Source: Candidatus Omnitrophota bacterium (lineage in GTDB: Bacteria > Omnitrophota > Gorgyraeia > Zapsychrales > Zapsychraceae). Taken from it: DNA of 64,000 bases. The position numbers and the translations under genes were made by a program. Position 1 is the first letter of the stretch; each line of letters starts with the position of its first letter. Of this stretch, positions 3,210 through 27,159 are shown piece after piece. Location: the NCBI GenBank assembly GCA_020632495.1, contig JACKFL010000005.1:1036925-1100924 (forward strand), given 5' to 3'. The notes beneath the pieces were generated by a model. The model saw only the letters and a list, made by a program, of their open reading frames with translations. It was not told the DNA's origin and searched no databases.

Positions 3210-3230
3210 ATTTGGTTTGTCACGACATAA

Positions 3231-4871
<1,641 letters not shown>

Positions 4872-4918: not shown

Positions 4919-4960
4919 AACCGCTCGGGAAACCCGGCCATCAATCGAAAGGAGGCAATC

Positions 4961-8721: not shown

Positions 8722-11700
8722 ATGTTTCAAGTATTTGCAAATAAAAGGTTTGCGCCTCTGCGGCGGTTTTGTTGTGCCGTCCTGGGGGCGGTCTTTGCCT
8801 GCGGATCGCTGACGCCGCCGGCCGCGGCCCAGACCGTGCCCGCGGTCATTCTGCCGCCGGTCGGAGCCATGGTCCAGACCACCGCCGCCTATCTGCCGGT
8901 CACCATGCTCGGCTTGACCGTCCGTCCCGAAGACCCGCTGCAACTGGATTTCATCATCGACGGCGGGCAGACCGGCCTGACCGGCGCGGGGTTAAAGTCC
9001 GAATCGGCCAAGCTGATCAATTATTTTCTGACCGCCCTGACCCTGCCCGAAGACCAGTTGTGGGTCAACCTTTCCCCCTATGAAAAAGACCGCATCATAC
9101 CCGACACCTTATCGCGCACCGAGATGGGCCGCGACATGCTCGCGCAGGATTATCTGCTCAAACAGCTGACCGCCTCCCTGATGTATCCGGAAGACGAACT
9201 CGGCCGCCGCTTTTGGGACCGCATCATTCAGGAAAGCTATCAGCGTTACGGCACCACCGACCTGCCGGCCAGCACCTTCAACAAGATCTGGATCATCCCC
9301 GAATACGCCCACGTCTACAAGCGTGACGGCAGTGTGTTCGTGGTCGACAGTCACCTGAGCGTCATGCTGGAAGAAGACTATCTGGCCGCGGCGGGCCATA
9401 GCGGGGAGGCTCCGGGCGATACCGATGTGCTGGACGAGGCCACCAAGGAACTCATCCGTGAGATCATGATCCCGGCCATCGAGCGCGAGATCAACACGGG
9501 CGAAAACTTCGCCCAGCTGCGCCAAATTTTCAATTCGATGATCCTGGCGGTATGGTACAAAAAGAATCTCAAAGAAAGCCTGCTCGGGCAGGTGTACGCC
9601 GACCGCCAACTGGTCAAGGGTGTCGACCACGTCGATCCGGGATTGAAGCAGGAGATTTATGGCCGGTATCTCGCCGCCTTCCGCAAAGGCGTGTTCGATT
9701 ACGTGAGAGAGGACCTTGATCCGGTCAGCCACGAACCCGTTCCGCGAAAGTATTTTTCGGGCGGTGTCGCCGCCATCGATCAGGCCCAGATCGCGGAGGT
9801 TGACGGTGCGCTGCCGGAAACCTTTGCCGCCAATCTTCACGACACGTTCACTGTTCGCGTGAATTTAACCACGATCGGGGGCGATCCGGATGCGGCGGTA
9901 CTCGCCGAAGAAAGGGGCTGGTCACAACCGCACATCAGCGCTTCGAGGGAACGGATTGAATCCTTACTGGCCTTTGAGGCCTCTCTGAACAGATTCTATC
10001 CGACCCCGTTGACCGGCGGCTGGCTGGAAGCGCAATCCGATGTGATTGTCACCCGGATTATGCGGTTGCTGGAAACACGCAAGCCCCGCGTGATCACCGC
10101 CGATACGCGGAAGTTTGTTGAGGCCCTGGTGATTCATCTGCTGGTCAATTCGATGGACGGGTATTTGCAACGGACGGACGGCCTCGCAGACCGGGCCGAC
10201 GAGTTCGAGTTCACGTTCGATTCACTGGTGGACGGCGAAACGCTGGTCTTGCGTTTTACGGATAACGGCACGGCGCCCGCTCAAGCTGAGGACACCGCGG
10301 CCAAACAACAGGCGATGCGGCAACAGCGTCCGCGTTTCGGGGGGCGGGGCCAGGCGCGTTCGTATCATTTGCCGTATTTGTTGCGGCAGTTGGGACGCCA
10401 GGTCCCCGTTTCGCTTCAGGAGCGCGCGGACGGACACCCGGGCACGGTCACGGAACTGCGGATTTCTCTCACCGACGCGGCCATCCTGATCGACGGCGGC
10501 GACATCCCGGCCTTCAAGGACAGCGAGGAAGTCCTGGCGGATATGCTTGCCGACGGCGACCTTCCGCTGAACGTCAAGCTCTGGCACGCCCTGGAGTTCC
10601 TGGACCGGGTCCGGCATTGGGTCTCCGAAGAGAACTTTGTGGATTCCGATACGCTGGATATCTACCGCCGCGCCTTGACGCTCGTCGAGCCCCCGCGCCA
10701 GTATGACGACCGGAATCTGCTGCGCGCCGAGGCCCAAGGCGGATTGCTGCATGATCTGTACCTGCGCCAGCTCGAGGTCCTGGCGGAGATGGCCGACAGT
10801 ACTCAGCGGTTGCTGCTAATGGAACCGGAGATCATGCTGGAAGATTTGGAGACGCGCATTCTCCGGGCGCATCCGCGTGTCGGGATGCTGACCGGCACGC
10901 AGTATGTCAGCGTCAAGACCAAGCTGATGAAGCTGTTGTCCGATCAAAACCGGGTCCAGCATATTTATGACCGTATCGCGACCAAATATCCCGTGCGCGA
11001 ATACGAACGCACCGCGCGTACCGTACAGCTGTGGGAGAAACTCGTTCCAGGCGACCGGGACCTTGTCGACTACCTGATCGTCCTGGATAAAGACACCATG
11101 CCTTCCGGTGTGGACGGCATGGCCCTGATTCCGGAGGCCCGGACCCTGGTCGTCAGCGAAGAGGCGTTTATGGACGCCGGCCGCCGCCGCGGCGAGATCG
11201 AGGTCGAGCATGTCCTTACGGAGAAACAGATTTTAGCGGTGACCGATGCCATCACCGCGCGGCGGAACATCAACTTCAGCCAGGCACGCGCCGGCCTTGA
11301 CGGACTGCGTGAGCGTATGGCGCCGATCTTTACCGAACTGTTCGGGGAGGGATCGCCGGTGCCGCGCTTCGCGTATCTGCGGCCGTCGCCCACGGCCCTG
11401 GTCGTCGAAATGGATAATGACTCCTTGCTCGCGTTGCGTGAGGCCTCGACAAAAGAGATCACCGAGAAGGTGGCCGCGGCGGACATCGACCGCGACATTG
11501 ATTTGGGGGAGGAAGAAGCCGCCCGATTCCGTCAGCTGCGCGAACTGATGCAGCGCTATCCGGAATACATCGCTATCAATTACCACGATGAACTGATCGC
11601 CTATCTGACCGGCGGTGTTCTGCGTACCACTAACGTGGACGGTCTGCTCGAATATTACCGCCGGAATTATCAGAATGCCTTATATACCCTGATCGACGCG

Positions 11701-14700
11701 ACGATCGCCGATCAGAATCTGCGCGACGCGCTGTTCCAGGAGGCGCGGACGGTCCTCAGTCCGCTCAATCCGCGGTGGAGCAAGATCGAAACGGCTATCC
11801 GCGGGAACAAGGCCTTGATCGACCGGCTGGTCGACAAGAAGGCCAGCCTGATTATCCGCAACGTGACCGGCGGGGAGGTGAATCTGGATGAATCGATGGA
11901 CGAGGTCCAGCGTATGCTGCTGGAACACCGGGCTTACCGCGAGGCCAGCCATGAGTTGAGGGCGGTCCTGCAGTTTATTCCGCCCGGCAAGATGCACCGC
12001 CTGTCCGCTCTGGAGGAACGCCTCGATGACGATATCCGCGTCCGCAAAAGTGCGCCGACACTCACCGAGAGTATCATCGGAAGCGGCAGCGGGACGCCGA
12101 CGCCCGGCATAGCGACGGTGCGCGGCTTCGCGCGGACCAAAAATGACTTGCCGCTGATTGTCCAGGGGATGGGACAGAGCGTCTGGGTTAGGGAGCACGA
12201 AGTCCAGCACGTGATCAACAGCGGATTTACCCTGTACACCTCGGCCGGTTTGAAGACCCCGGGAAGTTTCAATGCGCTGTGGCGGCGGGCGCTGCGGGGC
12301 AAGGCGGTCGCCGATGAAGCCCTGACGGTGACCGACGTCCTGCGGGAGTATCTGCCGGAAGGACGGGTACCCGAACGGACAAACGTGGGCCGGTTTCAGA
12401 TCGTGCACGCGCCGTGGCGGACTTCGCCGGACAAACCGGATAATTTCTTTGAACATGTCGTCATGCCCTTCGATGAAGGGCAGTTTTTCTTCGGTGCGCC
12501 CGCGCAGCCCGACACCGTTGACTGGCGATTCGACGAAGACACCGTCTTTTGGGAAGGACAAATCAACGGGACAGGATTGTCCTTCATCGAACAACGCTGG
12601 CCGTACGCGCTCAATCATTTTCTTATCGTACCGCAGCGCGGCGAACACCGGCCTCAGGTCCTGACCGAACAAGACGTGCGGCTGATGATGGACATCGCCC
12701 GGTCCGAACCGTTGCCGGGCTTCCGTTTGGCTTTCAACAGCCTGAAGGCCGGCGCCTCGATCAATCATCTTCATCTGCACGGCTTGACCGTTCCCGGCAA
12801 TACGTCCGCGTTGGAGCAGGCGGACCTGGTTGAATTGGCACGCCGGGACGGGGTGACCGTCAAGCGTATTGAAGGGGACATCGCCCGCGGGCTCTACTTT
12901 ACCGGCGCCGATCCCGCGGCGGCGGCCGCCACGGCTTACCAATATATTCAACGCCTGCAGGATCAGGATATCGCCCACACGGCCATCGCCACACCGGACG
13001 GTTTATTTGTGCTCCCTGTGCACGGAAATATCATCACCAGTTACGGGATGACCTGGTCTTTTTACGAATTGATGGGCTTTATTGTCAATTCGGACACCGG
13101 CCGGGACTTTTCATGGGTTCGGGAAGAACATATTCTGGCCGAGATGAAGGAAGTCGTGCTCAGCGAACAAGAATTCAACGACACTTACCGGGGCCTGTGG
13201 TCACGGGAGGCCGATAAGGCGGTCTTGACCGCGGGCCCGGTCTACGGTCAGCAGGTTGAGATCGTCGTGCGTCCCGACGGTATGCGTATCGACGGACGGA
13301 CTCTTTCGAATGGCTTGCCGGATATCCGGCATGATTTGAAGCACATCGCGTTTGCCGCGGTCACCGGACGCAGCAGTGTCCTCGATCATTTGACGTACGG
13401 CGCCTACAGTTCCCGGGCCTGGGATGATTTCACCTTCCGCGAGGGAATTCACGCCGGCAATCTGGAAGAGATTTTCGTGCGCGCGATGGAGATTTATCTG
13501 GCCGCCGGCACGCAGACGAATGCGCAGGAGCGGCTCGCCGCGATCACGGCCGATCTCGGAAGACCCGTAGATGAACTGCCTGCGGAATTTGCGGTCTCGC
13601 TGGAGAACGGCTCACTGTTCCGCCGCGTGCTGGATGCGTACGCGGGGCTCGACCGGCAATTGACGACAGAAGGGGAAGTCCGCGTGACTCACCGTTACGC
13701 GCCGCGTTTTCTCAAACCTGCCACCGGCGATGCCGCGATGACCGCCGCCGAACATGACGAGCAGCGCGCGAACGTGGCGCGCATCTATGCGGGCATGGCG
13801 GAGAACTTTAACGTCACCACCGGACAACCGATGTTCCGGGACAGCGAGCGGGTCGCGGCCATGGCCGGGATGTTTTCCACAGGACCCGACGGAGAACGGC
13901 GGGCGGTAGAGACCGACATTTATTCCGTGGCGTTGATGCAACTGCCGCAGGCCATGCGCGACTGGCTGCGGGATATCTTGGTGGCGGATTGGTTACAAAT
14001 CTTCACCGAAACCGATGAGGACATCGATCACTTTATTCCAGAACGCGACACCTATCATATCAGCGTGTCGGTGGTCCAGGATCTGGCCGCCCGACCGGAT
14101 GAGGCGGTCGGAGTCCTCGGCCGGCCGGATGAAGGTTTGACTGAAGACCAGCGCCAACGCATCACGGAAGATTTGCGCCGGATCATCGCGAGCCAGGATA
14201 AGGTCACGCTGACTCCGGTCGGCGCGCGGCTCGGTCCGGACGGGACCCTGATCTTCGTCTTTGAATACGATCCGGCCCTGTACGAGATTCGCGCCGAAGC
14301 GGTGGACGCGGTGCGTGCTCAAAACGCCGCCTTTACCGGACGGCCCAAACCCATGGTGCACGTGACGCTGTCCCGTACGCTCAATAATCCGACGGTAACC
14401 CCCCAGATGGCGGAAATGATCGCGCGTTTCCGTGACCGTTACACTTCGGTCACGAATGCCGACATGGGGCTGGAGGGACCGGTCACCGTGACGGAACTGG
14501 AGTTCAGTCACGAAAAGCGCTGGATGCACACCGAGATCGGCGCGTCCGAGGTGATACCGCTGGGCGGAAGCGATCAGGCCGAACTTGTGCAGTTTCATCC
14601 GTTTGATTTGCTCGGCCTTATCGATCTGGACGGAAAGCGGCTTAAGGCGGCTGTGGAGGCGCAGGAAGACGTCAATGCCTATGACGCGCCGCTTGATGAA

Positions 14701-17700
14701 GAATTGGCCCGGCTGGGATTTACCCGGGAGATGATCATCGAAGAGATCGTTTCCAAACTCGAACAGCGCCGGACGCTGGACCGCTGGGCGGCCACCGACG
14801 CCTTGGAGCACATTTTGCGCGAAGTCCTCGAAAACGCGGTCGACGCCTATATGCAGCGCGCTGATTTTGACGACGAGTTTATGTTCGGTTTCGACGTACG
14901 GTCCCACCCGCGCGGGACCGTCATCCGGTTTCTGGACAACGGAACGCCGCTGTTTGTTTCCGAAACATCCGAAGAGAAACGCGTGCAGAAGAAGGTGTTT
15001 CACAATCGTTACGGCGGAAAACATGCGGGGATGGCAATTATTCGCCATCAGGTCACCACCAATATTGATAAGAGGGCGGAGGTGAAATTGATTGATCTGA
15101 GTTCGCGCTTTCCGGGAGCCGAGCGGAAGCTTGAATTCTTCACGATGCTCGAAATCCTGCTGCCTGACGACGGGGCGGTACTTGCCGAAGCGCCGGTGAA
15201 GTCCGGACCGGGACAATTGACGTTGATGTTCCCTGTATTACGCCGGCTGAAAATAAAGGAGTTCGACAAGGGCAGTCAAACCAGGGTGTTTTCCACCGAG
15301 GCTTGGGATTATGTCTTAAAGGTTTTGCCGGCGGAGCCCAACGGCGTGTTTGTTATCGATAACTACGAACGGTTCCGGCCGTATTTGGGCGGTTTGGTCC
15401 CCGCGTATCAGATCGTGCGCCTGCTGGATACCTTCGGTATGTATCTGGAGGAAGCGGTTGTCATGGAAAAGATTTCCGGACCGAATCTTCTCGAAGATAT
15501 CCGCGCTGCCTATGAAGCCGGTGATATGACGACGGTGGACCGGGTCCTGAGTGAGTTTACGTCATTGCTGCAGGAAATTTATGACCGCGGCCTGCTGATG
15601 CCGGATGTCAAGCTGGTGAATTTCAAGAAACACGACGGACATTACCGGCTGCTTGACGCGGGGATCGTGCTCGACCCGGCGCAGTTCCGCGACGGCCGCG
15701 GGGATATCGAAACGGTCGGCGAATTCTTTATGCAGCGTCATCTGGAAAATCTGCGCGTCCTCGGTGCTGTGGGCGGTTATGAATTGATCAGCCGTTACCG
15801 GGACGCGATGGCCGCGATCGGTCTGGCGGACGGCGAAGGTTTTCTCAAGAAGGTCGGCGAGATGCCGGAAGAGATGACTCCTGCCCCGATGCCGGATATT
15901 TCCGCCGGTATCGTCCGGTCTCTGCACGCGCTGGCGGACGTACCCGCCGAGGTGACCGAGACGGCGGACGCGGAAGACTCTGCCGTTCTCAGTGAAACGG
16001 GCCGTGCCGGACTGGCTGATGAAACGCCGCTGGAAGAACTCGGTCTCAGCCGGCACAGCGAGCGCGTCCTGCGCGACCGCGGCCTGACGACTTTGGGGAT
16101 AATTAAGCAACAGCACCGCAGCGGTGCCTTGAATGATATTCCGGGGATGAAATCTCCGCTCAGCAAAGTGCGGATCGAAATCGACGGACTGATGCTGGAT
16201 TTGATTTCGGGCACCGAGTGGTCGCTGCCGGCGGTAGCCGAGGACATCGCCGCCGAGGCGGCTGATGAGATGGTCCGGGACGAAATCGAAGCGGACCCGG
16301 CGCTGACACGCGGGGAGAAAGATCAGGCGCTGTTGACCTGGCAGTCGGCCGTCGACATGCTGCGTCATTACCGCAACCGCGCGGTCTTGAGCCTGCCGCC
16401 GAAATTTACCAAGCCGGGTCAGCGCGGAATCGTGATGCTGGGCCATCTCCATGGACTTCCGTATGAGTCCCAGGAATGGTTGGATGGACTTAGGTATCTG
16501 GATGAAGCCCGGAACGGGACGGATCCACAGAAGTGGCAGCGGCATGTGACCCGTTGGGAAAATTATTTGAACCAGGCCCTGGACGTTGAGTATGCCGGCT
16601 TGTTGCAGGTCATCGAACAGGACTATGAGCGGGTGAAGACGATTCTCACGGAGATGACCGATATCCGGTTGGCGGGCGTCGAGTATTCGGCCAAGGAATT
16701 TCGCGACCTGATGCCGGAGGCCGAACAGATGGCCGTTCTTCTGCCGCAGCTGCTGCGCCGGCTCAATTTCCAATCCCCGGAGAAACGCGCGCGGCAATTG
16801 ATGTTGTTCACATACGGTCCGTTGGTGTATGCCAAGGTCACGGGTCAGGCGTTCATGCGGGACGTGGAACTGGTGCCGATCGACAATCATTTCCTGAAGA
16901 CGAGCGTCATGGGGGATGTCCGCAAGATCGATGCCGCCCTGGAGCGGGCGCGGTTCAGCCTTTCTCCCGATGCGAAACGCAGCTACCAGGCCGACGCGCA
17001 GGCGATTATCGACCGGCGTTATCGAAAGTTGCGGCTCGACCGTGACCGGCACTTCGCGCTGCAGGTCTTAAAGCACACGCGCAAAGGCCAGGCGATGCTG
17101 GTCAGTCTGGGAAATCTTCATATCGACGGGGTGGACGCGATTCTGAAAGGCCGGCGCGTCCTGCCGCGTGCCGTGATTGATATGAAAGAGTGGGAGGAAA
17201 AAGCGTCGGAATTATTCGTCTTTCCGGACCGGGCCGCCGCTGACAGGGCTGTATTCGGCGCCATTCCGGCACTCGGCGGTAATGATGCGCTTGATCTCGA
17301 CGCCTTTGTGCTCGCCGTGAGCGACACGTATCAGGACCATTTGCGCGGGGCCTGGAACGGTTCGCTGAGATTTTATGTTCCGTTGTCCGAAACCCGCCGC
17401 GACATCGATGACTTTCTGGTGACCGATCCGCGCGACGGCCGGCAGTGGGTGTATCTGGCCGCCCAGACCGGCTCGGAGGCGGGGAAGTCCGAGGCTTACC
17501 TGCTGCGCGTCAAAGAAGCGACCCCAACCAAGATCAGATTCGACGAGATCATGCTGCAACGGGCCACAGGCTTTATCCCGGTTCAGACCTTAATCGATCA
17601 GGGGCTCGCCTTACCGGGCAGCGCGGAGGTGATCATCAAACAGGCCGAGCGCTATATGCGCAACATGCGGCCGGTCATGCTCGCCCTGTTGTCCCAGGGA

Positions 17701-20700
17701 ATCGCGAAACCGAAACTGGTGCTGGGTGCGGCACGCAACAAATTCGACGATGATATGGTCTTTCTGGCAGTACCCATTGTCGATCCGGCCATTCCGCCGT
17801 CGACATTCGAGGGCCTGTATGTGGGTATGCGCGACAACGAACGCGTGTATATTCCGATGCACGCCGCCGGCGACCGCGGCCCGCATGTGCTGGTAAGGCT
17901 GCCGCGTTTGATCAAGATGACAGAGCGGGATCTCCAGGGATTGGCCGGAATAATGGCGGCGCAGACATTCATCGGCCGCCGATTGGGCGCAGAGAAGATC
18001 GGTCCGGCACTCGCCGGGGCCGGCGTTTCACTCGGCGGTGACGAAGTCGAACTCGACACGGACCGCGCCGTGGATAACATTTTTGCCCTGGACAGCGACC
18101 AGACCGACAAGGCCTGGCTCCGGCAGGATTTACGCGAGGCGCTGATATCAGCGGGTTACGTGGAAGACGAGGCCATGATCGCAGACGGTTTGGACGAAAA
18201 GGACGACGAATTTACGGAACTGCTTCGATCGAACGGTTTCGGTCGCAAGGTCGCTGAATTGATTCAACAGGAAGTTCGAAAGTCGGTCCAGCGGTTGGAA
18301 GATGGGCAAACGACCTTTGGCCAGCGTTACCGGACGGTCAAAAACTTCTTAACGAAGATTCAACCGATGGCAGACGACGGAGACACCGAGGCACAGACGA
18401 CTTTTGTCTTCGGTTTCGTTCAGCGTATGGAAGTGGTGGCTCCGAAGAAGGGCCGCCGGGCCGCCGACGTGACGGAGCGCCTGGCCCATGAATTATGGCA
18501 TGTGTACCGAAATGACGACCGGCTGGCGGATGCGTTTTCTGAACTGCGCCTGTTGGAAGAGGATTTGGTGGAAGAAGATGAAGATGTCCGCGGATGGTTC
18601 AATGACCCGGACATCGGACTGGAAGACTATGTTCCCCTATTGGAACGTCATAATCAGGAATTGGACGAGGAGCCGACCGCGGATCCCGATGATCCGGAAC
18701 CGGATTGGTATTCCAGTTTTGCCGAGGACTTGGGGCAGCTCATCTTTATGTTGACGGGCGGCAACGCAGACAAATCTTACCGGATCTTGAACGCCATGGA
18801 CCGTGGACTTTCCCTGCCGCAGGCTGTCGGGGCCGTCCTCGGCGACGAACGGCAGAGCCGCGGCGATATGGCGGTACTGGTCGAACCGCCGTACCTGGTG
18901 GGGATCACCCAGCTGCAGATCGCGGACGTGACGCGCAGTATGGTCTTCGACACCTTCAGCGGCCGGCGTCTCGGTTACCTGCGTGTTCTCAGAGCCCTCA
19001 ATGACGCGCGCATCATCCTCAACCGGGGTAAGCGCATCGATCTGAAGCTGGACCTGGCCGTATCTAATCTGCATGAGCAATCCGGCGGTGACATCGAAGA
19101 GGCGTGGCTCCGTCGCGACCTCAATACGGCCCTGCACAGCATCGGCGTCACCATCGATCAGGCGGTGTTGTCCGAAGACGGCCGTTTCCCGCCGGTAACG
19201 CAGGATGACTTCGTCACTTATTTCAAAAAAGCGTCATGGTGGGGGCCGGTGATCGACCGGCTGGAACAGTTCCGCACGGACGGCTTGATCCACAGTTACG
19301 GATTTACCGGGAGTTTCTCGCGGGGGCAGTACCGCCTCGGATCAAGTAAGGACCTGGACATCGCCCTTGTTTTGCGGGGCGAACCTTTTTACGCGAACCG
19401 ACTCGGACCGGTGGTCGATTTTATCGAGGAAATTAATTCAGATCCCGGCATCCCGGTGCACATCACATTGACGGCCTTCGGACCGTCATACCGGTATTCG
19501 GTCCGCGCGGATACGCTGGAGTTTGACCTGGTGCGTCAGCCCGAGGTGGTTCAGTACTACCTGGATGCCGGACACTATCGCGGCGACCGGTTTGTGCGGA
19601 TTGACGGAAGTACAGCGGATCCGCAGAATCTGTGGCGGTTGCACGCCAAGCTCGTTGAACTGGGACCGATGCCGGAGGAGCAGCTGCGGGAATTTTTAAG
19701 CGGCGTTGATCAGGCCGTCCTGGCGGACGTGATGGATGCCGTCCGACGGAAGCTTCAACGGGACGCGGCCTTCGCCGGACGCGGAAATGAGCATCTGCCT
19801 GGTTATCTGCGGGAGTTTCAGGCCCGCCTGATCCGCGGCCGTACCGCCGCGGACCGTGAAATCATCGACCGGTTGCTCAACAATGAGGACATCCTGACGG
19901 TCACGGATCAAACGCCGCTCTACAACGGCGCTCCGTTAACAGTCGACAATCCGGTGGCATGGGGGAATGACACGCAGATCTTTATGCAGCCCACACGCAG
20001 TATTCATCTTTATCCGGGAGACTTGCGGTTGAAGGGAAGCGGCGGAGCGAATTTCATAAAACAATTTGCCGGAACGGTGTATCCTTATAACGTGCGCGAG
20101 TTCGGCGCGCGCGCCCGGGCCATCTATTTCGGCGCCAACGAACAGAATCTGCAAAAAGAAATGACCGCGGCGCTGTCATTCGCCTATTTAATGGAAACGC
20201 TGTGGCCGACAGAAGGCGCGCAGGCGACCAATATTCCGCTGGGCATCAAGCGCGTCAAGACAGTGACCATAGGCGCAGAGCCGTATCCCGTCGACGTTTA
20301 CTTCAGTAAATTGGCCCGCGAAGATGAGGAAGCGCGGACGGCGATGGAGGAATTACTTGTGCGGCAGTTGGGCAGCCGCCGGGCTGAATATCCGGAGGAT
20401 ACCGCCGCGGCCTTTGTCGCTTTTATGCGTCCGGCGCAAATGCTGGATATGCAGGGTTCGCCGTTGCGCGTCGGTTTAATCCGCAAACTGCTGCTCGAAG
20501 ATTACAGTGCCGAACATGACTTTGATGTGGAAGTCCGTGAACGCTGGCAGCAACGCGGGCAAGCGTTGACGGGATTATCCGCCGAGGAGATCGCGCGATT
20601 GGCCAAGCAACGGGTGGATGACATATTCGGCGAAATTATGCAGGATTACCAACCGCTCGCGGTGGACGCAACCGAACTGATCACGGAAACGGAAGGAGCG

Positions 20701-23700
20701 TCCCCGTTCGCGATCCTCTATCAGGCCACGGACGCCTACCGCCGCCGGACCCTGGTTTATAACGCGCGGGCCGCCGAGCGCTTTTACCGGGACGTGGTGT
20801 ATGATTTGGGACGCTACCTCGGCGCGCTGTGGACCGTGGGCGGCCGAACCGACGGCGGTCCGATCGAAGAACGCAATGTCGCTATCCGGGGTAACCGGGT
20901 AGTCCTGCACGATTGGGATGAGGGTTTTGTGCCGAACCGGGAGACCGTGGGGATCCGGATCGAGCCGTCGGCGATCCGCAATGATTTCGGCATGATGCAG
21001 ATCTCGACGCTGAAAACGATTCAGCAGCTGCTCGGTGTGCATGACCGGTTTGCCGACAGCGCCCAGCGCTATTTTATGGAAGGCGTCACGGCCGGCAGCC
21101 GGCGCGCTATGGAAGAAATCCTGATGAATCCCGGACAAGATGTGCTGAATGATATCGACCGGCAGATGTTGTTGAATGACTGGCGCCGGCTGACGCTGCC
21201 CCGGGAGACCACAACGGATGTCAGCGATGTGTTTGCGGCGGAGTTCCTGCGTTCTGTGCGGGAGCTGGCGCAACAGGGAGAACGTGTCACGGCCGATCAG
21301 GCCGTGCTGGCCGATCCCGCCGCAGACGCGCGCCTCATCAGTGAGATCGAACCGATTGAGCAGTTCGCCCGTTTTATCACAGATATCGAGGACTTGGACG
21401 CGTTTGTCGAGGCGCCTTTGCTGGAAGCGGCCCGCACATTGTTCAAGAAGGGCATCCGCACCTTCTGGACCTCGGCCAACCGCAAGGACATCGCCGAAGG
21501 ATCCCCGGCGGTCCTGATGTTCCTTTATGACGAATTGTCGCCGCGCAACAAGCTGGTGTCGCACAGCGTGGGGCAGGTGCTCGACAACATCAGCACCGTC
21601 GTGCGTATTCCGATGGACGAGACGACGACGGTGGCCGATATTCATCGTGAGGCCATGGCCATCGTCAACCGCTTTGAGGCGCAGCCGATGGACCGCAGCA
21701 TCGCCGAGATTATCCGGCCGGGACGGGACCAGGCTGTCACTGTGGAAGAACAGGACAAGCCGCCGGCGGATGTCCGGCGCCTGGCCGGTGTCGCGTTTAT
21801 CTTCGGCACCGGAAATAACGCAACGGTAATCGATGCCGACGGGAACGTCCGCCTTGAGAACGGAGCGCTCACCGAACTCGGACACAATATTCTTAAGAAA
21901 AGCCGGACCGGGGAATGGGTATTTACGGGGCGGGAAACTTTGGGTGCTAAACCCGATCGGGAATCCGGAGACGTGAGTTTCGAAGATTCCTTCAGTGGTC
22001 CCAACATCGCGCGCCGGTTCGCGCAGACAGACTGGGCGCCGGCGTTTATCAAAACACATGTTACCGCGCTGCCGGAGGGCTTCGCGACTCATACACAACT
22101 TGTTGACTTGGTTCGCAACGTGCCCGATGACGAAAATCTTCGCAAACTCCGGGCGGCGGGTATTGATGTTATTCTGCGGACGATTACAGCCGCGGTATCC
22201 GACGGTGACGCGCAGGCGATAAGCTTTGTCAATCGCTTGGGACGTGAGATCGGTGTGGCCTTGGCAGCTTGGTTGAAGCATTATGCCGCTGAAGATTGGA
22301 CGCAGAATATCGTTTTGGTCAGCGGAGTCGGCGAGCACTTTGCCCGTATTGAAGGAGAGACGGACGATACCAATGTCTTTATCGGAGGTATTCGAGCGGG
22401 CGTAACTTTGGGACTTGCGGAAGCCGGGAAAACGGAAGGTCTACGTTATCTCGACGAAGCGCGGATCCAGGGTATCGCCCGCGGCATACGGCGTTCCACG
22501 ATGGGATGGGAACGCGAGTTATTGGCGGCCCGTTTCACCGAACAAGAACGGTCACAACTGGACATAACCGATGCCGCCCCGCAAGACGCCCTGGCCGTGG
22601 GAATCAGTCTGGGTGGGACAAAGATCGGCGCCGGTCTGATCTCGATGGACGGGAATATACTCGCGCGGGATGAAATTCAATGGCGGCAGCGCTATCACGA
22701 ATCGTCCGCAGGTATTGTCGAAGGTATCGTTGACAGGATTGCGAATTTGCTAACGGCAGACGCCGTACGGAATTTGAGAAAAGTCGGCATCGCTTTTGCC
22801 GGACCCGTGGACCGGGACGCCGGCGTCGTGGGTACGCCGTTTAAAGCGCCCAATCTGCCGTTCGAAAATTATCCGCTGCGACAGGCCATTCGCGAAAGGC
22901 TCTTACAGAAGCTGCAGGACGAGTTTGGCAGCCAAGTTCAAGATCTCACAATCGACATTTACAATGACAATGTGGCGGCGGCTATCGGAGAGCAAAGCCG
23001 GTCAGGTCGATTGAATGCCGGAGCCCGTGATGAGGCCATGCAGGCCTCGGCCCCAAAACAGGCGCGCGTTTTTGACACAGCGGAGGCCGTCGCCTCGGTC
23101 TTTCCGTACGCGGATGTGATCAACCTGCCGGCACTGGCCGAGAGCGGCGTGGTCCTGACCGGTCACGTCAACCGCGTGCCGGCGCAGACATCGCTCGAGA
23201 ACTATGTCTTGAAGGCGCGCCACCAAATGAAGATTTATGAGGGCGGCACGTATCGCGGGGCCGTGCCGTTGTGGGAATACAGTAAACCCGGGCAACTGGT
23301 GAATATCCCGCTGGAAAAGTTCACCGACGCCCGCTGGGTGTTACCGTTGCACGCGCAGTACCGTCCCAAACTGACGGAAAACCAGGGCCTGGTCCGCACG
23401 CTGTTGTGGCTGTATCTGGTGTCCCGTCCTGAATTGCAGGGTGAGAAGGTCGTCGCCATCGGCGCGGCCGAGCCGTTCCGCCGCACGCTGGATGAGATGC
23501 GCGCGGTCTTCGGTGATTACCGGACCTTCACTGAAGATGATTTCGGTTTCCGGCTCAGCCAGCCGGCCTATGAATTTACCGTACCGGTCCTGACCGCCGA
23601 ACAACGCTCTGCGGTGGAATCCTACCTCGAGAAATTCATGCCGATTACCGACGTTGCGTCGGACGGAGACGCAGCCGTCCTCGGCACCGATAAAAAAGGG

Positions 23701-23976
23701 GGGATCGACTTCAATCCGGTAAATATGAATCTGTCGGAGCAGGGAGACGATATCCCGCTGAATGTATCGCCAATCCTCTCGTCACCGCTCGGACCGATTG
23801 AAGGCATCCGGCCGGTGATTATTCAGATCGTTCCCGTCACCAATCTGCCGCTGCTGCTCGGTCTGACCGACAAACCTTCCGAAGATGCTCCTGTTTCCGG
23901 CGCGGATCTTCTCGCCCGTGATCCTGCCGACCGGCGTGCGTTGACGATCGCCGCCCTGGACGTCATCGTCCGTTAA
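8722..23976 (+). CDS. Giant (5,084 aa) signal-peptide-bearing multi-module protein: GHKL-like x2, HIT/GDP-hexose-phosphorylase-like, 2H phosphoesterase, kinase-like, HExxH x2, Pol-beta nucleotidyltransferase, split ROK/ASKHA
   Basis: Uninterrupted 15,255-nt ORF. N-terminal MFQVFANKRFAPLRRFCCAVLGAVFACGSLTPPAAAQ. Motif-level matches are listed in the findings. No Shine-Dalgarno is visible before ATG 8722. Confidence 0.9.
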   Translation: MFQVFANKRFAPLRRFCCAVLGAVFACGSLTPPAAAQTVPAVILPPVGAMVQTTAAYLPVTMLGLTVRPEDPLQLDFIIDGGQTGLTGAGLKSESAKLINYFLTALTLPEDQLWVNLSPYEKDRIIPDTLSRTEMGRDMLAQDYLLKQLTASLMYPEDELGRRFWDRIIQESYQRYGTTDLPASTFNKIWIIPEYAHVYKRDGSVFVVDSHLSVMLEEDYLAAAGHSGEAPGDTDVLDEATKELIREIMIPAIEREINTGENFAQLRQIFNSMILAVWYKKNLKESLLGQVYADRQLVKGVDHVDPGLKQEIYGRYLAAFRKGVFDYVREDLDPVSHEPVPRKYFSGGVAAIDQAQIAEVDGALPETFAANLHDTFTVRVNLTTIGGDPDAAVLAEERGWSQPHISASRERIESLLAFEASLNRFYPTPLTGGWLEAQSDVIVTRIMRLLETRKPRVITADTRKFVEALVIHLLVNSMDGYLQRTDGLADRADEFEFTFDSLVDGETLVLRFTDNGTAPAQAEDTAAKQQAMRQQRPRFGGRGQARSYHLPYLLRQLGRQVPVSLQERADGHPGTVTELRISLTDAAILIDGGDIPAFKDSEEVLADMLADGDLPLNVKLWHALEFLDRVRHWVSEENFVDSDTLDIYRRALTLVEPPRQYDDRNLLRAEAQGGLLHDLYLRQLEVLAEMADSTQRLLLMEPEIMLEDLETRILRAHPRVGMLTGTQYVSVKTKLMKLLSDQNRVQHIYDRIATKYPVREYERTARTVQLWEKLVPGDRDLVDYLIVLDKDTMPSGVDGMALIPEARTLVVSEEAFMDAGRRRGEIEVEHVLTEKQILAVTDAITARRNINFSQARAGLDGLRERMAPIFTELFGEGSPVPRFAYLRPSPTALVVEMDNDSLLALREASTKEITEKVAAADIDRDIDLGEEEAARFRQLRELMQRYPEYIAINYHDELIAYLTGGVLRTTNVDGLLEYYRRNYQNALYTLIDATIADQNLRDALFQEARTVLSPLNPRWSKIETAIRGNKALIDRLVDKKASLIIRNVTGGEVNLDESMDEVQRMLLEHRAYREASHELRAVLQFIPPGKMHRLSALEERLDDDIRVRKSAPTLTESIIGSGSGTPTPGIATVRGFARTKNDLPLIVQGMGQSVWVREHEVQHVINSGFTLYTSAGLKTPGSFNALWRRALRGKAVADEALTVTDVLREYLPEGRVPERTNVGRFQIVHAPWRTSPDKPDNFFEHVVMPFDEGQFFFGAPAQPDTVDWRFDEDTVFWEGQINGTGLSFIEQRWPYALNHFLIVPQRGEHRPQVLTEQDVRLMMDIARSEPLPGFRLAFNSLKAGASINHLHLHGLTVPGNTSALEQADLVELARRDGVTVKRIEGDIARGLYFTGADPAAAAATAYQYIQRLQDQDIAHTAIATPDGLFVLPVHGNIITSYGMTWSFYELMGFIVNSDTGRDFSWVREEHILAEMKEVVLSEQEFNDTYRGLWSREADKAVLTAGPVYGQQVEIVVRPDGMRIDGRTLSNGLPDIRHDLKHIAFAAVTGRSSVLDHLTYGAYSSRAWDDFTFREGIHAGNLEEIFVRAMEIYLAAGTQTNAQERLAAITADLGRPVDELPAEFAVSLENGSLFRRVLDAYAGLDRQLTTEGEVRVTHRYAPRFLKPATGDAAMTAAEHDEQRANVARIYAGMAENFNVTTGQPMFRDSERVAAMAGMFSTGPDGERRAVETDIYSVALMQLPQAMRDWLRDILVADWLQIFTETDEDIDHFIPERDTYHISVSVVQDLAARPDEAVGVLGRPDEGLTEDQRQRITEDLRRIIASQDKVTLTPVGARLGPDGTLIFVFEYDPALYEIRAEAVDAVRAQNAAFTGRPKPMVHVTLSRTLNNPTVTPQMAEMIARFRDRYTSVTNADMGLEGPVTVTELEFSHEKRWMHTEIGASEVIPLGGSDQAELVQFHPFDLLGLIDLDGKRLKAAVEAQEDVNAYDAPLDEELARLGFTREMIIEEIVSKLEQRRTLDRWAATDALEHILREVLENAVDAYMQRADFDDEFMFGFDVRSHPRGTVIRFLDNGTPLFVSETSEEKRVQKKVFHNRYGGKHAGMAIIRHQVTTNIDKRAEVKLIDLSSRFPGAERKLEFFTMLEILLPDDGAVLAEAPVKSGPGQLTLMFPVLRRLKIKEFDKGSQTRVFSTEAWDYVLKVLPAEPNGVFVIDNYERFRPYLGGLVPAYQIVRLLDTFGMYLEEAVVMEKISGPNLLEDIRAAYEAGDMTTVDRVLSEFTSLLQEIYDRGLLMPDVKLVNFKKHDGHYRLLDAGIVLDPAQFRDGRGDIETVGEFFMQRHLENLRVLGAVGGYELISRYRDAMAAIGLADGEGFLKKVGEMPEEMTPAPMPDISAGIVRSLHALADVPAEVTETADAEDSAVLSETGRAGLADETPLEELGLSRHSERVLRDRGLTTLGIIKQQHRSGALNDIPGMKSPLSKVRIEIDGLMLDLISGTEWSLPAVAEDIAAEAADEMVRDEIEADPALTRGEKDQALLTWQSAVDMLRHYRNRAVLSLPPKFTKPGQRGIVMLGHLHGLPYESQEWLDGLRYLDEARNGTDPQKWQRHVTRWENYLNQALDVEYAGLLQVIEQDYERVKTILTEMTDIRLAGVEYSAKEFRDLMPEAEQMAVLLPQLLRRLNFQSPEKRARQLMLFTYGPLVYAKVTGQAFMRDVELVPIDNHFLKTSVMGDVRKIDAALERARFSLSPDAKRSYQADAQAIIDRRYRKLRLDRDRHFALQVLKHTRKGQAMLVSLGNLHIDGVDAILKGRRVLPRAVIDMKEWEEKASELFVFPDRAAADRAVFGAIPALGGNDALDLDAFVLAVSDTYQDHLRGAWNGSLRFYVPLSETRRDIDDFLVTDPRDGRQWVYLAAQTGSEAGKSEAYLLRVKEATPTKIRFDEIMLQRATGFIPVQTLIDQGLALPGSAEVIIKQAERYMRNMRPVMLALLSQGIAKPKLVLGAARNKFDDDMVFLAVPIVDPAIPPSTFEGLYVGMRDNERVYIPMHAAGDRGPHVLVRLPRLIKMTERDLQGLAGIMAAQTFIGRRLGAEKIGPALAGAGVSLGGDEVELDTDRAVDNIFALDSDQTDKAWLRQDLREALISAGYVEDEAMIADGLDEKDDEFTELLRSNGFGRKVAELIQQEVRKSVQRLEDGQTTFGQRYRTVKNFLTKIQPMADDGDTEAQTTFVFGFVQRMEVVAPKKGRRAADVTERLAHELWHVYRNDDRLADAFSELRLLEEDLVEEDEDVRGWFNDPDIGLEDYVPLLERHNQELDEEPTADPDDPEPDWYSSFAEDLGQLIFMLTGGNADKSYRILNAMDRGLSLPQAVGAVLGDERQSRGDMAVLVEPPYLVGITQLQIADVTRSMVFDTFSGRRLGYLRVLRALNDARIILNRGKRIDLKLDLAVSNLHEQSGGDIEEAWLRRDLNTALHSIGVTIDQAVLSEDGRFPPVTQDDFVTYFKKASWWGPVIDRLEQFRTDGLIHSYGFTGSFSRGQYRLGSSKDLDIALVLRGEPFYANRLGPVVDFIEEINSDPGIPVHITLTAFGPSYRYSVRADTLEFDLVRQPEVVQYYLDAGHYRGDRFVRIDGSTADPQNLWRLHAKLVELGPMPEEQLREFLSGVDQAVLADVMDAVRRKLQRDAAFAGRGNEHLPGYLREFQARLIRGRTAADREIIDRLLNNEDILTVTDQTPLYNGAPLTVDNPVAWGNDTQIFMQPTRSIHLYPGDLRLKGSGGANFIKQFAGTVYPYNVREFGARARAIYFGANEQNLQKEMTAALSFAYLMETLWPTEGAQATNIPLGIKRVKTVTIGAEPYPVDVYFSKLAREDEEARTAMEELLVRQLGSRRAEYPEDTAAAFVAFMRPAQMLDMQGSPLRVGLIRKLLLEDYSAEHDFDVEVRERWQQRGQALTGLSAEEIARLAKQRVDDIFGEIMQDYQPLAVDATELITETEGASPFAILYQATDAYRRRTLVYNARAAERFYRDVVYDLGRYLGALWTVGGRTDGGPIEERNVAIRGNRVVLHDWDEGFVPNRETVGIRIEPSAIRNDFGMMQISTLKTIQQLLGVHDRFADSAQRYFMEGVTAGSRRAMEEILMNPGQDVLNDIDRQMLLNDWRRLTLPRETTTDVSDVFAAEFLRSVRELAQQGERVTADQAVLADPAADARLISEIEPIEQFARFITDIEDLDAFVEAPLLEAARTLFKKGIRTFWTSANRKDIAEGSPAVLMFLYDELSPRNKLVSHSVGQVLDNISTVVRIPMDETTTVADIHREAMAIVNRFEAQPMDRSIAEIIRPGRDQAVTVEEQDKPPADVRRLAGVAFIFGTGNNATVIDADGNVRLENGALTELGHNILKKSRTGEWVFTGRETLGAKPDRESGDVSFEDSFSGPNIARRFAQTDWAPAFIKTHVTALPEGFATHTQLVDLVRNVPDDENLRKLRAAGIDVILRTITAAVSDGDAQAISFVNRLGREIGVALAAWLKHYAAEDWTQNIVLVSGVGEHFARIEGETDDTNVFIGGIRAGVTLGLAEAGKTEGLRYLDEARIQGIARGIRRSTMGWERELLAARFTEQERSQLDITDAAPQDALAVGISLGGTKIGAGLISMDGNILARDEIQWRQRYHESSAGIVEGIVDRIANLLTADAVRNLRKVGIAFAGPVDRDAGVVGTPFKAPNLPFENYPLRQAIRERLLQKLQDEFGSQVQDLTIDIYNDNVAAAIGEQSRSGRLNAGARDEAMQASAPKQARVFDTAEAVASVFPYADVINLPALAESGVVLTGHVNRVPAQTSLENYVLKARHQMKIYEGGTYRGAVPLWEYSKPGQLVNIPLEKFTDARWVLPLHAQYRPKLTENQGLVRTLLWLYLVSRPELQGEKVVAIGAAEPFRRTLDEMRAVFGDYRTFTEDDFGFRLSQPAYEFTVPVLTAEQRSAVESYLEKFMPITDVASDGDAAVLGTDKKGGIDFNPVNMNLSEQGDDIPLNVSPILSSPLGPIEGIRPVIIQIVPVTNLPLLLGLTDKPSEDAPVSGADLLARDPADRRALTIAALDVIVR

Positions 23977-24714: not shown

Positions 24715-24775
24715 TCCCGGTTGCGGCATCAGGCGGTGCTTGTCTAACTCCAAGGAAGTGTGTACAATAGCTGTC

Positions 24776-27145
24776 ATGTTTCGTCATGCTATCCTAAGTA
24801 TACTGATCGTAATGCTTTTCATGCCTGAGGCCGTCCTGGCAGCCGACCCGCCCACAGTGACTGTCGGGGTGGTGATTGACGGGCCGTGGAAGCGCAATAA
24901 TGAAATCTTTGAACTTTTGCGTTCCGAGGTCCACACTCTTACCGATGATGAGTTCGCGGTCCGCTTTCCCGCAGACAAGAGCCTCACGGCCGACTGGACC
25001 CGCGACGGTGTCTCCGCAGCCGTTGAGCGTTTGCTCAATGATCCCGGGGTCGATATAATCATCGCGCTGGGCGCGATCGCTTCAGACGACCTGGTCCATC
25101 GCGGACCGTTGCCCAAACCCGTCATAGCACCCTATATTCTGGATATCGAGTTGCAAAATGTCCCCCGGCAAGACGGTTCCAGCGGGGTAACCAACCTTTC
25201 CTATGTCACGTTTTCCACCCGTTTGCCGACCAGCATGACGACGTTCCATGAAGTCGTGGGATTTCATAAGCTGACTCTGATGACGAACACCTACGTCATT
25301 ACCGCCATTCCCCAGTTGAAGGACCGCATCCGTCAAATCGCCGGTTCGATCGGTATCGATGTTAGTATCGTACTCGTCGACGGTGCCGTTCAGGAGGCGC
25401 TCGCCGGTATCCCCCGCGGGACCGAAGCGGTATTTGTGGCTCCGCAGTTTCAGCTGGCGCCTGAAGAAGTCGATGAGCTGATCGCCGGGCTGATCGAACG
25501 CCGGCTGCCGTCGTTTTCAGGATTCGGCCGGTCGGAAGTGGAGCGGGGTATGATGGTCGGCCTCACGCAGACCGACTTTGACTTTCCGCGCATGGCCCGG
25601 CGCATCGCGCTCAACCTGCAGCGTATTTTGCTGGGCGAAAAACCCGAAGATATCCCGGTCGCCTTTGAAGAGGTCACCCAGCTGACCATCAATATGGAAA
25701 CGGCCCGTAAGGTCGGCACGTGGCCCAGTTGGGATATCATGCAGAAGGCCGAGCTGATCGGTGAGAATTATTTTGAATCAAAGGGGGAGTTGACGCTGGA
25801 AGAAGCCATTTCCGACGCGGTCGAAAAAAATCTGTCACTGATGGCCGGTTACAAGTCGGTTACGGCCGGGGCGGTGGATATCCGGCGTGCCTGGGCCACA
25901 CTGTTTCCGCAGGTCACGCTGGCCGGCCAATGGCGGAAGATCGACGAGGACCGCGCCAAGGCCAGCCTCGGTACGGCCCCGGAACGCACGGCCAATTCTT
26001 CAGCGACACTGACACAGATCCTGTTCAACGAAGAAGCCCTGGCAAATGTCGGGATACAAAAGCGTCTGCAGATATCCCGTGAGGAAGAATTTCGTCAGCT
26101 CAAACTGGATATCATCCAGGCCACCGCGATCACTTACTTTAATGTCCTGCGGGCCAAGATTCTGGAACGGATCCAGTTTGACAATCTGAAACTTTCCAAG
26201 GCCAACCTCGAACTGGCGGAGAAACGCGAATCCGTCGGACAGTCCGGATCGGCCGATGTTTACCGCTGGGAAAGTCAGATCGCCACCAACCGGCGGGATT
26301 TGCTGCAGGCCCAGGCGGACCGGCACAATGCCGAAATCGTCTTAAACGGGCTGCTGCACCGGCCGCTGGAAGATAATTATCAGCTGCGCGAGACGTCATT
26401 GGACGAACCGATGCTGTGGATCGACCGGGACCGGGTCATCCAGTACACCGACAATCCCTGGTCATTCCGTATTTTCCGGGATTTTATTGTCACCGACAGT
26501 CTGGAGAATACTCCCGGACTGCGGCAGTTGGAGGCGCTGATCAAGGCGAAGGATCGGCAGTTACGTTCCGCGAAGCGGGATTTCTGGCTTCCTGATATCA
26601 CGTTTCAGGCTAATGTCACCGATAATTTTTATGAAGACGGGGCGGGGCAGCCCGCTGCGCCGGTCAAGAATGACCGGGATGTGTCGGCCGTCGTCCAGGC
26701 CAGTTATCCGCTGTTTGAAGGCGGCGACCGGGTGGCCGAGGTCAAACAGTTGAAGGAAGAACTGGCGCAGTTGACTCTGCAACGGGATGCGTTAATGGAA
26801 AGTATCGAACAGGATATCCGGACATCACTGCGGGATGTCGGGGCCTCACACGGGTCCATTCGGCACGCGCGCAAATCGGCCGCGGCGGCCGGACAGAACC
26901 TCGAGCTGATTACCGACGCGTACGCCCGAGGGTCGGTGTCAATCATCGAATTGCTCGACGCGCAGAACGCGTCCTTGGTCGCGGACCAGGTGTCGGCCAA
27001 TGCTGTTTACGATTTTATGATCGACTTTATGGTTATGCAACGCAATATGGGTTATTACATGTTCATGTTGAACGAAGAAGAGCGCCGGGAGTGGTTGGAA
27101 CGGCTCGCCGCTTTCTTCTCCGACCGCGGGATCACGGTCGAATAG
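24776..27145 (+). CDS. TolC-like outer-membrane efflux protein fused to an N-terminal ABC-substrate-binding-like (type I PBP, COG2984-like) domain
   Basis: Signal peptide MFRHAILSILIVMLFMPEAVLA. The N-terminal ~330 aa end with ...ALNLQRILLGEKPEDIPVAFEEVTQLTINMETARKVG, typical of the ABC_sub_bind family. The C-terminal ~450 aa carry the two TolC/OEP repeats (LTLEEAISDAVEKNLSL..., ...IELLDAQN). Confidence 0.8.
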   Translation: MFRHAILSILIVMLFMPEAVLAADPPTVTVGVVIDGPWKRNNEIFELLRSEVHTLTDDEFAVRFPADKSLTADWTRDGVSAAVERLLNDPGVDIIIALGAIASDDLVHRGPLPKPVIAPYILDIELQNVPRQDGSSGVTNLSYVTFSTRLPTSMTTFHEVVGFHKLTLMTNTYVITAIPQLKDRIRQIAGSIGIDVSIVLVDGAVQEALAGIPRGTEAVFVAPQFQLAPEEVDELIAGLIERRLPSFSGFGRSEVERGMMVGLTQTDFDFPRMARRIALNLQRILLGEKPEDIPVAFEEVTQLTINMETARKVGTWPSWDIMQKAELIGENYFESKGELTLEEAISDAVEKNLSLMAGYKSVTAGAVDIRRAWATLFPQVTLAGQWRKIDEDRAKASLGTAPERTANSSATLTQILFNEEALANVGIQKRLQISREEEFRQLKLDIIQATAITYFNVLRAKILERIQFDNLKLSKANLELAEKRESVGQSGSADVYRWESQIATNRRDLLQAQADRHNAEIVLNGLLHRPLEDNYQLRETSLDEPMLWIDRDRVIQYTDNPWSFRIFRDFIVTDSLENTPGLRQLEALIKAKDRQLRSAKRDFWLPDITFQANVTDNFYEDGAGQPAAPVKNDRDVSAVVQASYPLFEGGDRVAEVKQLKEELAQLTLQRDALMESIEQDIRTSLRDVGASHGSIRHARKSAAAAGQNLELITDAYARGSVSIIELLDAQNASLVADQVSANAVYDFMIDFMVMQRNMGYYMFMLNEEERREWLERLAAFFSDRGITVE

Positions 27146-27159
27146 GGACGGAGGATAAT

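Follow-up and report, generated by a model that had tools for sequence, protein, structure and literature searches.

A 5084-residue protein with conserved terminal domains belongs to a widespread Omnitrophota family of putative exported carriers

In the 64,000-nucleotide stretch of DNA analysed here (contig JACKFL010000005.1; hereafter the window), positions 8722-23976 of the forward strand form one uninterrupted open reading frame (ORF) of 5084 codons, the gene under study; all of its features given below lie on this strand. The product opens with a predicted Sec-type signal peptide (residues 1-37, 8722..8832), recognised from the translation, the hydropathy profile, an AlphaFold2 model and a family consensus, and continues with a conserved alpha/beta module that defines a protein family and that we call the head (residues 38-389, 8833..9888). 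It ends in a conserved tail core (residues 4993-5048, 23698..23865), delimited with a nine-tail profile and reading GGIDFNP ... G-I-R-PVIIQIVPVTNLPLLLGL, followed by an acidic C-terminal extension (residues 5049-5084, 23866..23976 with the stop codon). Between head and tail lies the cargo (residues 390-4982, 9889..23667), which the hydropathy scan, the cysteine count and Pfam matches describe as a chain of soluble modules. The reading we favour, which rests on sequence and to which we give about an even chance, is that the gene belongs to a family of Sec-exported carriers found throughout the phylum Omnitrophota, in which the head would be a targeting module, the tail a retention signal and the cargo extracytoplasmic. 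The phylum of the window protein itself is inferred from the distribution of the family.

An earlier note on this DNA had drawn attention to the two ends of the protein and suggested that they might form an export or surface-anchoring scaffold into which variable cargo is inserted. The tail stretch that it singled out, 23668-23976, corresponds to residues 4983-5084, and the translation agrees exactly with its quotation (DAAVLGTDKKGGIDFNPVNMNLSEQGDDIPLNVSPILSSPLGPIEGIRPVIIQIVPVTNLPLLLGLTDKPSEDAP...DVIVR*); the head strings that it quoted (LQLDFIIDGG, LINYFLTALTLPEDQLWVNLSPYEKDRIIP...) are present and fall where the family alignment is most conserved; and its head boundary at 9888 is exact, the first junction motif, DAAVL, beginning at residue 390. 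Near-obligate co-occurrence of head and tail, unrelated cargos, and modules gained or lost between close orthologues bear out a conserved head and tail around variable cargo. The architectural half of the suggestion is thus strongly supported, while the export or anchoring function is consistent with the signal peptide and the absence of cysteine.

Head, tail and their pairing

The predicted signal peptide combines a basic n-region (K8, R9, R13, R14), a hydrophobic core peaking at residues 16-34 in the hydropathy scan and a cleavage-type site, A-A-A|Q; the AlphaFold2 model shows a helix at residues 8-30 and then a low-confidence linker. The family consensus around the site is ...PPxxxxAQxxLNLPxPG, with x-A-Q in homologues, and the A-x-A|Q site is conserved. 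A lipoprotein reading of the window sequence FAC|G was rejected, since Phe at position -2 is non-canonical and the cysteine is not conserved across the family. Over the whole protein the Kyte-Doolittle value exceeds 1.5 in just two stretches, the signal peptide and the tail segment PVIIQIVPVTNLPLLLGLT.

Searched with residues 1-393, the head retrieved more than 871 proteins at E <= 1e-3 (a lower bound, from 8000 scored candidates), with identities of ~45-57% and a best E value of 4e-125, and almost all the named matches are 'Candidatus Omnitrophota/Omnitrophica'. A genome scan with one genome per species gave at least 595 pattern matches, at least 572 of them confirmed, the confirmed heads lying in Omnitrophota metagenome-assembled genomes (MAGs) or in MAGs auto-labelled 'uncultured Planctomycetales'. 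Among the 79 loci that were kept, single MAGs hold at least 10-11 copies of the head, and two or more copies stand in tandem at 21 loci. Four such arrays (L046 2302-12814, L021 2319-13132, L072 1345-11768 and L053 244-10509) each consist of 3-4 head(-tail) genes on the same strand, arranged head-to-tail and with different cargo. An alignment of 119 heads has 30 invariant columns, for example W114-V115-N116-L117-S118-P119, and the AlphaFold2 model of the head is an alpha/beta fold with a predicted local distance difference test (pLDDT) score of 82 and a predicted template modelling score of 0.81. Neither head nor tail has a match in Pfam, NCBIfam (its C-terminal sorting-signal models included), PDB sequences or PDB folds, and a head profile run against PDB sequences likewise returned nothing. 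Proteins consisting of a head alone also occur, such as P0121 with 353 residues. In 2.9 million viral contigs there were just five matches, three of them at a contig end, and on this ground we rejected a phage or mobile-element origin.

For the tail, a word-indexed search with a single sequence returned one 83-residue fragment alone, which reflects the limit of sensitivity rather than absence: eight head-bearing matches visibly end in the window-type tail motif, and the window tail core, which lies 36 residues before the stop codon, aligns with the eight tails of head-bearing proteins. A profile of nine tails was therefore scanned exhaustively with HMMER against 1.84 billion representatives of 50%-identity clusters, giving 5,905 clusters with E <= 1e-3, of which 2,056 reach E <= 1e-10. 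The 150 matches listed, from proteins of 77-4783 residues, all end within ~110 residues of the C-terminus. The consensus of 296 tails is GGIDlNP-x8-G-x~20-I-x-G-F-x-PVIINITPvtNlPlLLGL, in which G, G, I, D, G, P, I, P and G are conserved at 92-97%. The core is followed by an extension of 0-91 residues (median 11), usually acidic and often ending ...[SL]LN. Many homologues (P0063, P0099, P0122 and P0134 among them) terminate in ...E-[FL]-E-[LV]-S-S-L-N, and ~25% of 291 tail-bearing proteins have asparagine at the very end; the window protein closes with ...LDVIVR instead. In a model of P0099 (549 residues) the tail forms three short strands (GGIDF, LDLQIK, FLPIIINV) with pLDDT 50-83.

The earlier note had stated that the tail contains no transmembrane (TM) helix, which is only roughly right. 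The segment PVIIQIVPVTNLPLLLGLT (residues 5031-5049) reaches a Kyte-Doolittle value of 1.66; on the other side, it contains three prolines, is a beta-strand in the homologue model and is followed by an acidic rather than a basic segment. The same note saw no LPXTG, PEP-CTERM or type IX secretion system (T9SS) pattern, and we agree: NCBIfam and Pfam gave nothing meaningful for the nine tails at E <= 10, nor did PDB sequences. PEP-CTERM, LPXTG and GlyGly-CTERM signals were rejected as candidates, there being no NCBIfam model match and the hydrophobic stretch being proline-rich with an acidic 0-91 residues after it. The note had allowed that no other protein might share the head or the tail, or that the tail might belong to a known family of sorting signals; both ends are in fact shared widely, and no such sorting-signal match was found.

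The 79 genome loci contain 79 head ORFs that are complete at the 3' end, and in 65 of these a tail was detected at E <= 1e-5. Several of the tail-less remainder have degenerate tails by eye, N-runs or frame breaks, and a TM helix standing in for the tail was seen in only one of 13, for which reason we rejected it as a general substitute. Conversely, all 12 tail-only ORFs either run off the start of the cut locus or contig or adjoin a split head ORF. Two headless tail proteins from the database could be traced: one starts 166 nt from a contig end, and for the other, P0231, the ORF before it encodes the head in frame, with a single TAG between the two. The pairing is asymmetric, because every tail-only ORF traces to an edge or a broken frame: a tail implies a head, and roughly 10% of heads are without a tail.

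At L088 3823-10500 (JAUSHM010000056.1) a head ORF is followed in frame by a cargo-plus-tail ORF; the TAG at 4924-4926 stands three codons past a DQAML junction, and the gene caller has the second ORF begin at the Met of the junction that follows, DNAML. Pseudogenisation, a sequencing error, a naturally split gene or read-through might each account for this arrangement. At L089 7836-8144 a 103-codon stop-to-stop ORF, after two short ORFs and near a contig end, encodes little beyond a tail (E 1e-20) and may be what is left of a family member that has decayed.

Cargo, cysteine avoidance and junctions

Across the family the cargo ranges from ~100 to 4,600 residues and cannot be aligned from one protein to another (mean column identity 7%). 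In 51 proteins it includes 28 Pfam families of cytoplasmic type: receiver domains (five proteins), PGK, starch synthase, HATPase_c, CofD, NUDIX, PRTase, UDPGP, FBPase, TIM, RmlD, PALP, PP2C and methyltransferases; PGI, PGM, HAD and ankyrin were also seen among the database head matches. No TM-like segment was found in 55 of 61 proteins (73,000 cargo residues), and the hydropathy scan found no hydrophobic segment in the window cargo.

Within the 5084 residues of the window protein, the sole Pfam or NCBIfam domain above threshold is the N-terminal half of a ROK-family sugar kinase (residues 4626-4727, 22597..22902), supported by PF00480 (E 2.3e-10 / 4.6e-12), by TIGR00744 and by the PDB glucokinase 3vgk (E 3.5e-5). 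After cutting at internal boundaries, sub-threshold matches to four further folds appeared, all weak. A HIT/Ap4A-phosphorylase-like stretch (residues ~1298-1358, 12613..12795) contains NHLHLHG and matches Pfam Ap4A_phos_N at E 0.11 and the PDB entry for HINT2 at E 0.19; the orthologue P0245 carries a precomputed match to PF26217, GDPGP1_N. A 2H-phosphoesterase-like stretch (14137..14430; Pfam 2_5_RNA_ligase2, E 0.033) has HxS/T dyads in its translation, a GHKL/HATPase-like stretch lies at 14797..15075 (Pfam HATPase_c, E 0.022), and a Pol-beta-type nucleotidyltransferase-like stretch at 19270..19464 (Pfam NTP_transf_2, E 0.075). A second GHKL/HATPase-like module, at residues ~394-597, cross-matches the orthologue copy of residues ~1928-2155; a self-comparison of the window protein by blast revealed no internal repeats, and repeats are visible solely through comparison with the orthologue.

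The three cysteines of the window protein (residues 17, 18 and 27) all lie inside the signal peptide, and there are none in the 5047 mature residues, for which ~35 would be expected from the 0.70% found in the 21 other window ORFs. The family behaves alike: cysteine makes up 0.05% of cargo (79,430 residues) and 0.044% of heads against 1.2% in flanking ORFs, and it is missing altogether from 46 of 65 cargos and from 39 of 50 database members. The depletion is ~20-fold across the family and is similar in head, cargo and tail. Proteins that pass through the envelope unfolded or have their place beyond the cytoplasm (RTX proteins, autotransporter passengers and S-layer proteins, for example) are typically this poor in cysteine. 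In cytoplasmic enzymes the pattern would be difficult to account for, and the near-absence of cysteine argues that the enzyme cargo leaves the cytoplasm.

A short motif recurs along the window protein. The form D-x-A-[VIM]-L is observed 10 times against 0.6 expected (at most four in 2000 shuffles), and the broader D-x-A-[VIM]-[LT] occurs in 12 copies of 15 nt each, starting at 9889, 10474, 13213, 13729, 15169, 15976, 18865, 19156, 19708, 21295, 21727 and 23668. We call these copies junctions, for they lie directly behind the head, between recognisable modules and five residues ahead of the tail core. The first, DAAVL (residue 390, 9889..9903), falls within a linker of pLDDT < 50 (residues 389-400), and the last, again DAAVL, is at residue 4983 (23668..23682). 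Between them are DAAIL (residue 585, 10474..10488), DGAVL (residue 2150, 15169..15183), DSAVL (residue 2419, 15976..15990), DQAVL (residue 3479, 19156..19170), two further copies at 19708-19722 (residue 3663) and 21295-21309 (residue 4192), and DQAVT (residue 4336, 21727-21741), besides those that bound the variable blocks described below. The junction copies that were modelled sit in low-pLDDT linkers. In the family as a whole the motif takes the forms D-x-A-M-[LT] and, in other lineages, [AS]-S-S-P-[VIL], which occupy the same positions; both are ~30-55-fold over-represented in cargo, where their density is 6-13 times that in neighbouring genes.

The synonymous codon positions of the 12 copies vary freely; hence the constraint acts on the peptide, and a DNA-level recombination or repeat signal is ruled out. 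Internal initiation at the Met of DxAML is likewise ruled out in the window gene, where that position is Val (GTA, GTC, GTT, GTG).

Two blocks account for essentially all of the difference between the orthologue P0245 (4692 residues, 93% identity) and the window protein, and both begin and finish on junctions. One is the module of residues 1498-1669 (13213..13728), which starts with the junction DKAVL, is directly followed by DAAMT (13729-13743) and is missing as a unit from P0245, as a pairwise alignment and blastp show. The other, residues ~3150-3383 (18169..18870), is bounded by DEAMI and DMAVL, and P0245 carries a single DSAVL in its place. Since the block ends coincide with junctions, we conclude that junction-bounded modules are the units of gain and loss.

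Possible roles of head, tail and junctions

If the family is exported as we favour, the signal peptide would take the unfolded chain across SecYEG and be cut at A-x-A|Q. We propose that the head would then be recognised by a shared envelope component, either an outer-membrane translocator or a surface structure, much as the targeting domain of two-partner-secretion exoproteins is, because it is far more conserved than everything behind it. The tail, which depends on a head, would be the C-terminal signal by which the same machinery retains or anchors the protein, like the C-terminal domain of T9SS cargo. The lack of cysteine in the cargo would keep disulfides from forming on the way, and the cargo might be displayed on the cell or delivered at host contact. 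The junctions D-x-A-[VM]-[LT] and [AS]-S-S-P-[VIL] would mark module boundaries and points of gain and loss, and may serve as sites of proteolytic processing too.

Sec-dependent substrates with terminal address domains are known; what would be new here are two unrecognised terminal address domains and an unusual cargo. Like the family, T9SS cargo of Bacteroidota (TIGR04183/Por_Secre_tail) combines a Sec signal peptide, arbitrary cargo and a conserved beta-rich domain at the extreme C-terminus, which in T9SS spans 60-100 residues; dozens of dispersed T9SS substrates per genome are served by one machinery encoded elsewhere. T9SS cargo, however, has no conserved N-terminal head and belongs to another phylum, and we rejected the equation in the absence of any match to the Por_Secre_tail/TIGR04183 model or other sequence match. 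TpsA proteins of two-partner secretion (FHA, CdiA) are likewise large and cysteine-poor, with a Sec signal peptide followed by a conserved N-terminal domain; their targeting domain has ~250-300 residues, and in CdiA a VENN motif marks the boundary of exchangeable modules. TpsA differs in that its N-terminal domain is a beta-helix where our head is alpha/beta, its cargo is a beta-helical shaft instead of globular enzymes, and it lacks a conserved C-terminal tail; with no Haemagg_act/TPS Pfam match in the head and no adjacent TpsB gene, this candidate was also set aside.

MARTX toxins resemble the family in having conserved N- and C-terminal regions around an effector array that varies between close strains, and cleavage behind Leu residues of the inter-domain linkers sets their modules free; but they are type I secretion system (T1SS) substrates without a Sec signal, and neither their glycine-rich repeats nor their internal cysteine protease domain was detected here. 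LapA-type T1SS adhesins share an N-terminal module with a short Ala-containing motif close behind it, a C-terminal signal and a very long passenger. In these adhesins the folded N-terminal retention module holds the protein at the envelope, and the Ala-containing motif is a protease motif. They too lack a Sec signal peptide and possess RTX repeats and a T1SS signal, and the second position of our junction varies (D-K/Q/S/A-A-M-L) in place of a strict di-alanine site. Given no HemolysinCabind match and the Sec-type signal peptide, we rejected RTX/T1SS substrates of either kind. A ClyA-type alpha-pore-forming toxin, an elongated helical bundle with a beta-tongue, was dismissed for want of a significant structural match.

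Several observations weigh against an exported carrier. The cargo enzymes (PGK, TIM, FBPase, receiver) ordinarily depend on substrates found in the cytoplasm, for example ATP and sugar phosphates, and a role for them outside the cytoplasm is not obvious. All-against-all clustering of 846 flanking ORFs from the 79 loci found no transporter, sortase-like or other gene that recurs beside family members, yielding nothing beyond generic response regulators at 13 loci and ABC ATPases at seven; the family is therefore dispersed. An RND/TolC cluster does lie downstream in the window (24740-31310), but it is missing from the orthologous, 93%-identical contig (L001 14457-15716), where the reductase gene next to it is kept, and so represents a strain-level insertion or deletion. 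A dedicated secretion or sorting gene in the neighbourhood was rejected on both counts. Finally, a junction occurs within 60 residues after the head in 15 of 65 proteins and near the tail in 10 of 65, so that the junction motifs are lineage-variable and not essential to the family's function.

Four other explanations fit part of the evidence. That the protein is a MARTX-like multi-effector polyprotein, whose ends would aid export into a host or prey and whose modules would be released by a protease cutting at the junctions, behind their aliphatic last residue and ahead of a small one, we consider unlikely from its sequence, though conserved ends do surround a variable cassette array, modules are swapped at junctions that lie in exposed linkers (last residue L/T/V, the next mostly S/A/G/T), and the cargo is cysteine-free like that of secreted toxins. 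Omnitrophota are moreover described as dependent on hosts or as predators, and it has been proposed that their giant proteins are cleaved (bioRxiv 10.1101/2023.11.21.568195). An HtrA-type protease gene stands ~2 kb upstream of the giant gene, but it does not recur at other loci; Pfam detected no protease domain inside the window protein, which has no RTX repeats and, unlike T1SS substrates, has a Sec signal peptide; and in many family members there is just one cargo module, or a junction is lacking entirely. The asymmetry of the pairing, with no tail lacking a head yet ~10% of heads lacking a tail, would suit a head-to-tail assembly, in which the tail strands dock into the head of the same or the next molecule to give a loop or periplasmic or surface chains of enzymes, and so would the many co-expressed paralogues and tandem arrays and the pLDDT of up to 83 that the tail strands reach when modelled along with the head. 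One machinery reading both ends predicts an equal asymmetry, however, and overall tail confidence is modest (residues 477-492 of P0099 have pLDDT < 50); we regard such assembly as distinctly improbable.

Slightly less credible again is a membrane-tethered cytoplasmic scaffold, with an uncleaved N-terminal helix and the tail stretch anchoring enzymes to the inner membrane. It would account for cargo enzymes of cytoplasmic type and for the position of the only two hydrophobic stretches at opposite ends, and inner-membrane-anchored readings are discussed for Omnitrophota long proteins in a 2026 preprint (10.64898/2026.06.07.730766). The chief objection is that it offers no rationale for near-total cysteine avoidance in cytoplasmic enzymes; in addition, basic residues before the N-terminal helix and A-x-A|Q after it have the geometry of a signal peptide, and the tail stretch has three prolines, a modelled strand and acidic residues behind it. 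Invariant polar residues of the head (N116, S118, D143, K147, D219, E256, N258, R267, Q268) would fit an active or ligand-binding site, and head-only proteins such as P0121 exist, so the head might instead be a functional enzyme or binding protein of a paralogous family to which modules and tail were added without a common export logic. That would leave unexplained a conserved tail at the extreme C-terminus of proteins of 550-5084 residues, the purge of cysteine from unrelated cargo and the strict dependence of the tail on the head, and we hold it the least probable of these explanations.

Omnitrophota are widespread, mostly uncultured and host-dependent, and are noted for very long multi-enzyme proteins. 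Long and giant 'multi-enzyme metabolic cluster' proteins of the phylum have been catalogued (Nielsen & Lui 2026, bioRxiv 10.64898/2026.06.07.730766), as have proteins of >=10,000 residues by Pfam content (10.64898/2026.06.07.730766; 10.1101/2023.11.21.568195), and the cleavage points of giant proteins are stated to be unknown (West-Roberts et al. 2023, bioRxiv 10.1101/2023.11.21.568195). The long proteins share with our family the phylum and the kind of cargo (HATPase, ROK, HIT, NUDIX, PGM, HAD, methyltransferases), most have a signal peptide and/or TM segments, and post-translational cleavage is suspected. By enzyme tiling, signal peptide and phylum the window protein fits class 1 of Nielsen & Lui 2026, but with 5084 residues it falls below the 10-kaa cut-off, and the family as a whole spans 550 to about 5,000 residues against >=10,000 for the catalogued long proteins. 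Head, tail, junction motif and cysteine avoidance are not described in the searched passages of 10.64898/2026.06.07.730766 and 10.1101/2023.11.21.568195, and literature searches for the motifs or for a described family returned nothing relevant within the collection searched.

A bolder form of the export hypothesis, which we put forward tentatively and think rather doubtful, is that head and tail are the address labels of an unrecognised, Omnitrophota-specific secretion or display pathway for cysteine-free cytoplasmic-type enzymes, possibly into host or prey, and that D-x-A-M/V-L and ASSPV are processing sites of the long and giant proteins. The two uncatalogued domains mark one coherent substrate family and provide handles on the export and processing of Omnitrophota long proteins; the junction motif marks a boundary where modules exchange and is a candidate cleavage site. 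Head and tail profiles can serve to recognise and delimit these genes in annotation, and the junction motif to cut long proteins into modules for structure prediction in a principled way. Were export true, secreted PGK, TIM, FBPase and signalling domains would be unusual biology, relevant to episymbiosis or predation.

Neighbouring genes and occurrence

Directly upstream of the giant gene, on the same strand, lie genes for GroEL (3252-4871), Hsp20 (4961-5596), the HtrA/DegP-type protease with Trypsin_2 and PDZ domains (5436-6626) and HtpG/Hsp90 (6663-8513). Downstream follow an F420_oxidored-type reductase and then a TolC-like protein, an HlyD-type adaptor and an AcrB-type pump. The TolC-like protein is unusually long, at 801 residues, with its OEP domain only at residues 584-758. 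The window DNA was found in activated-sludge and wastewater metagenomes.

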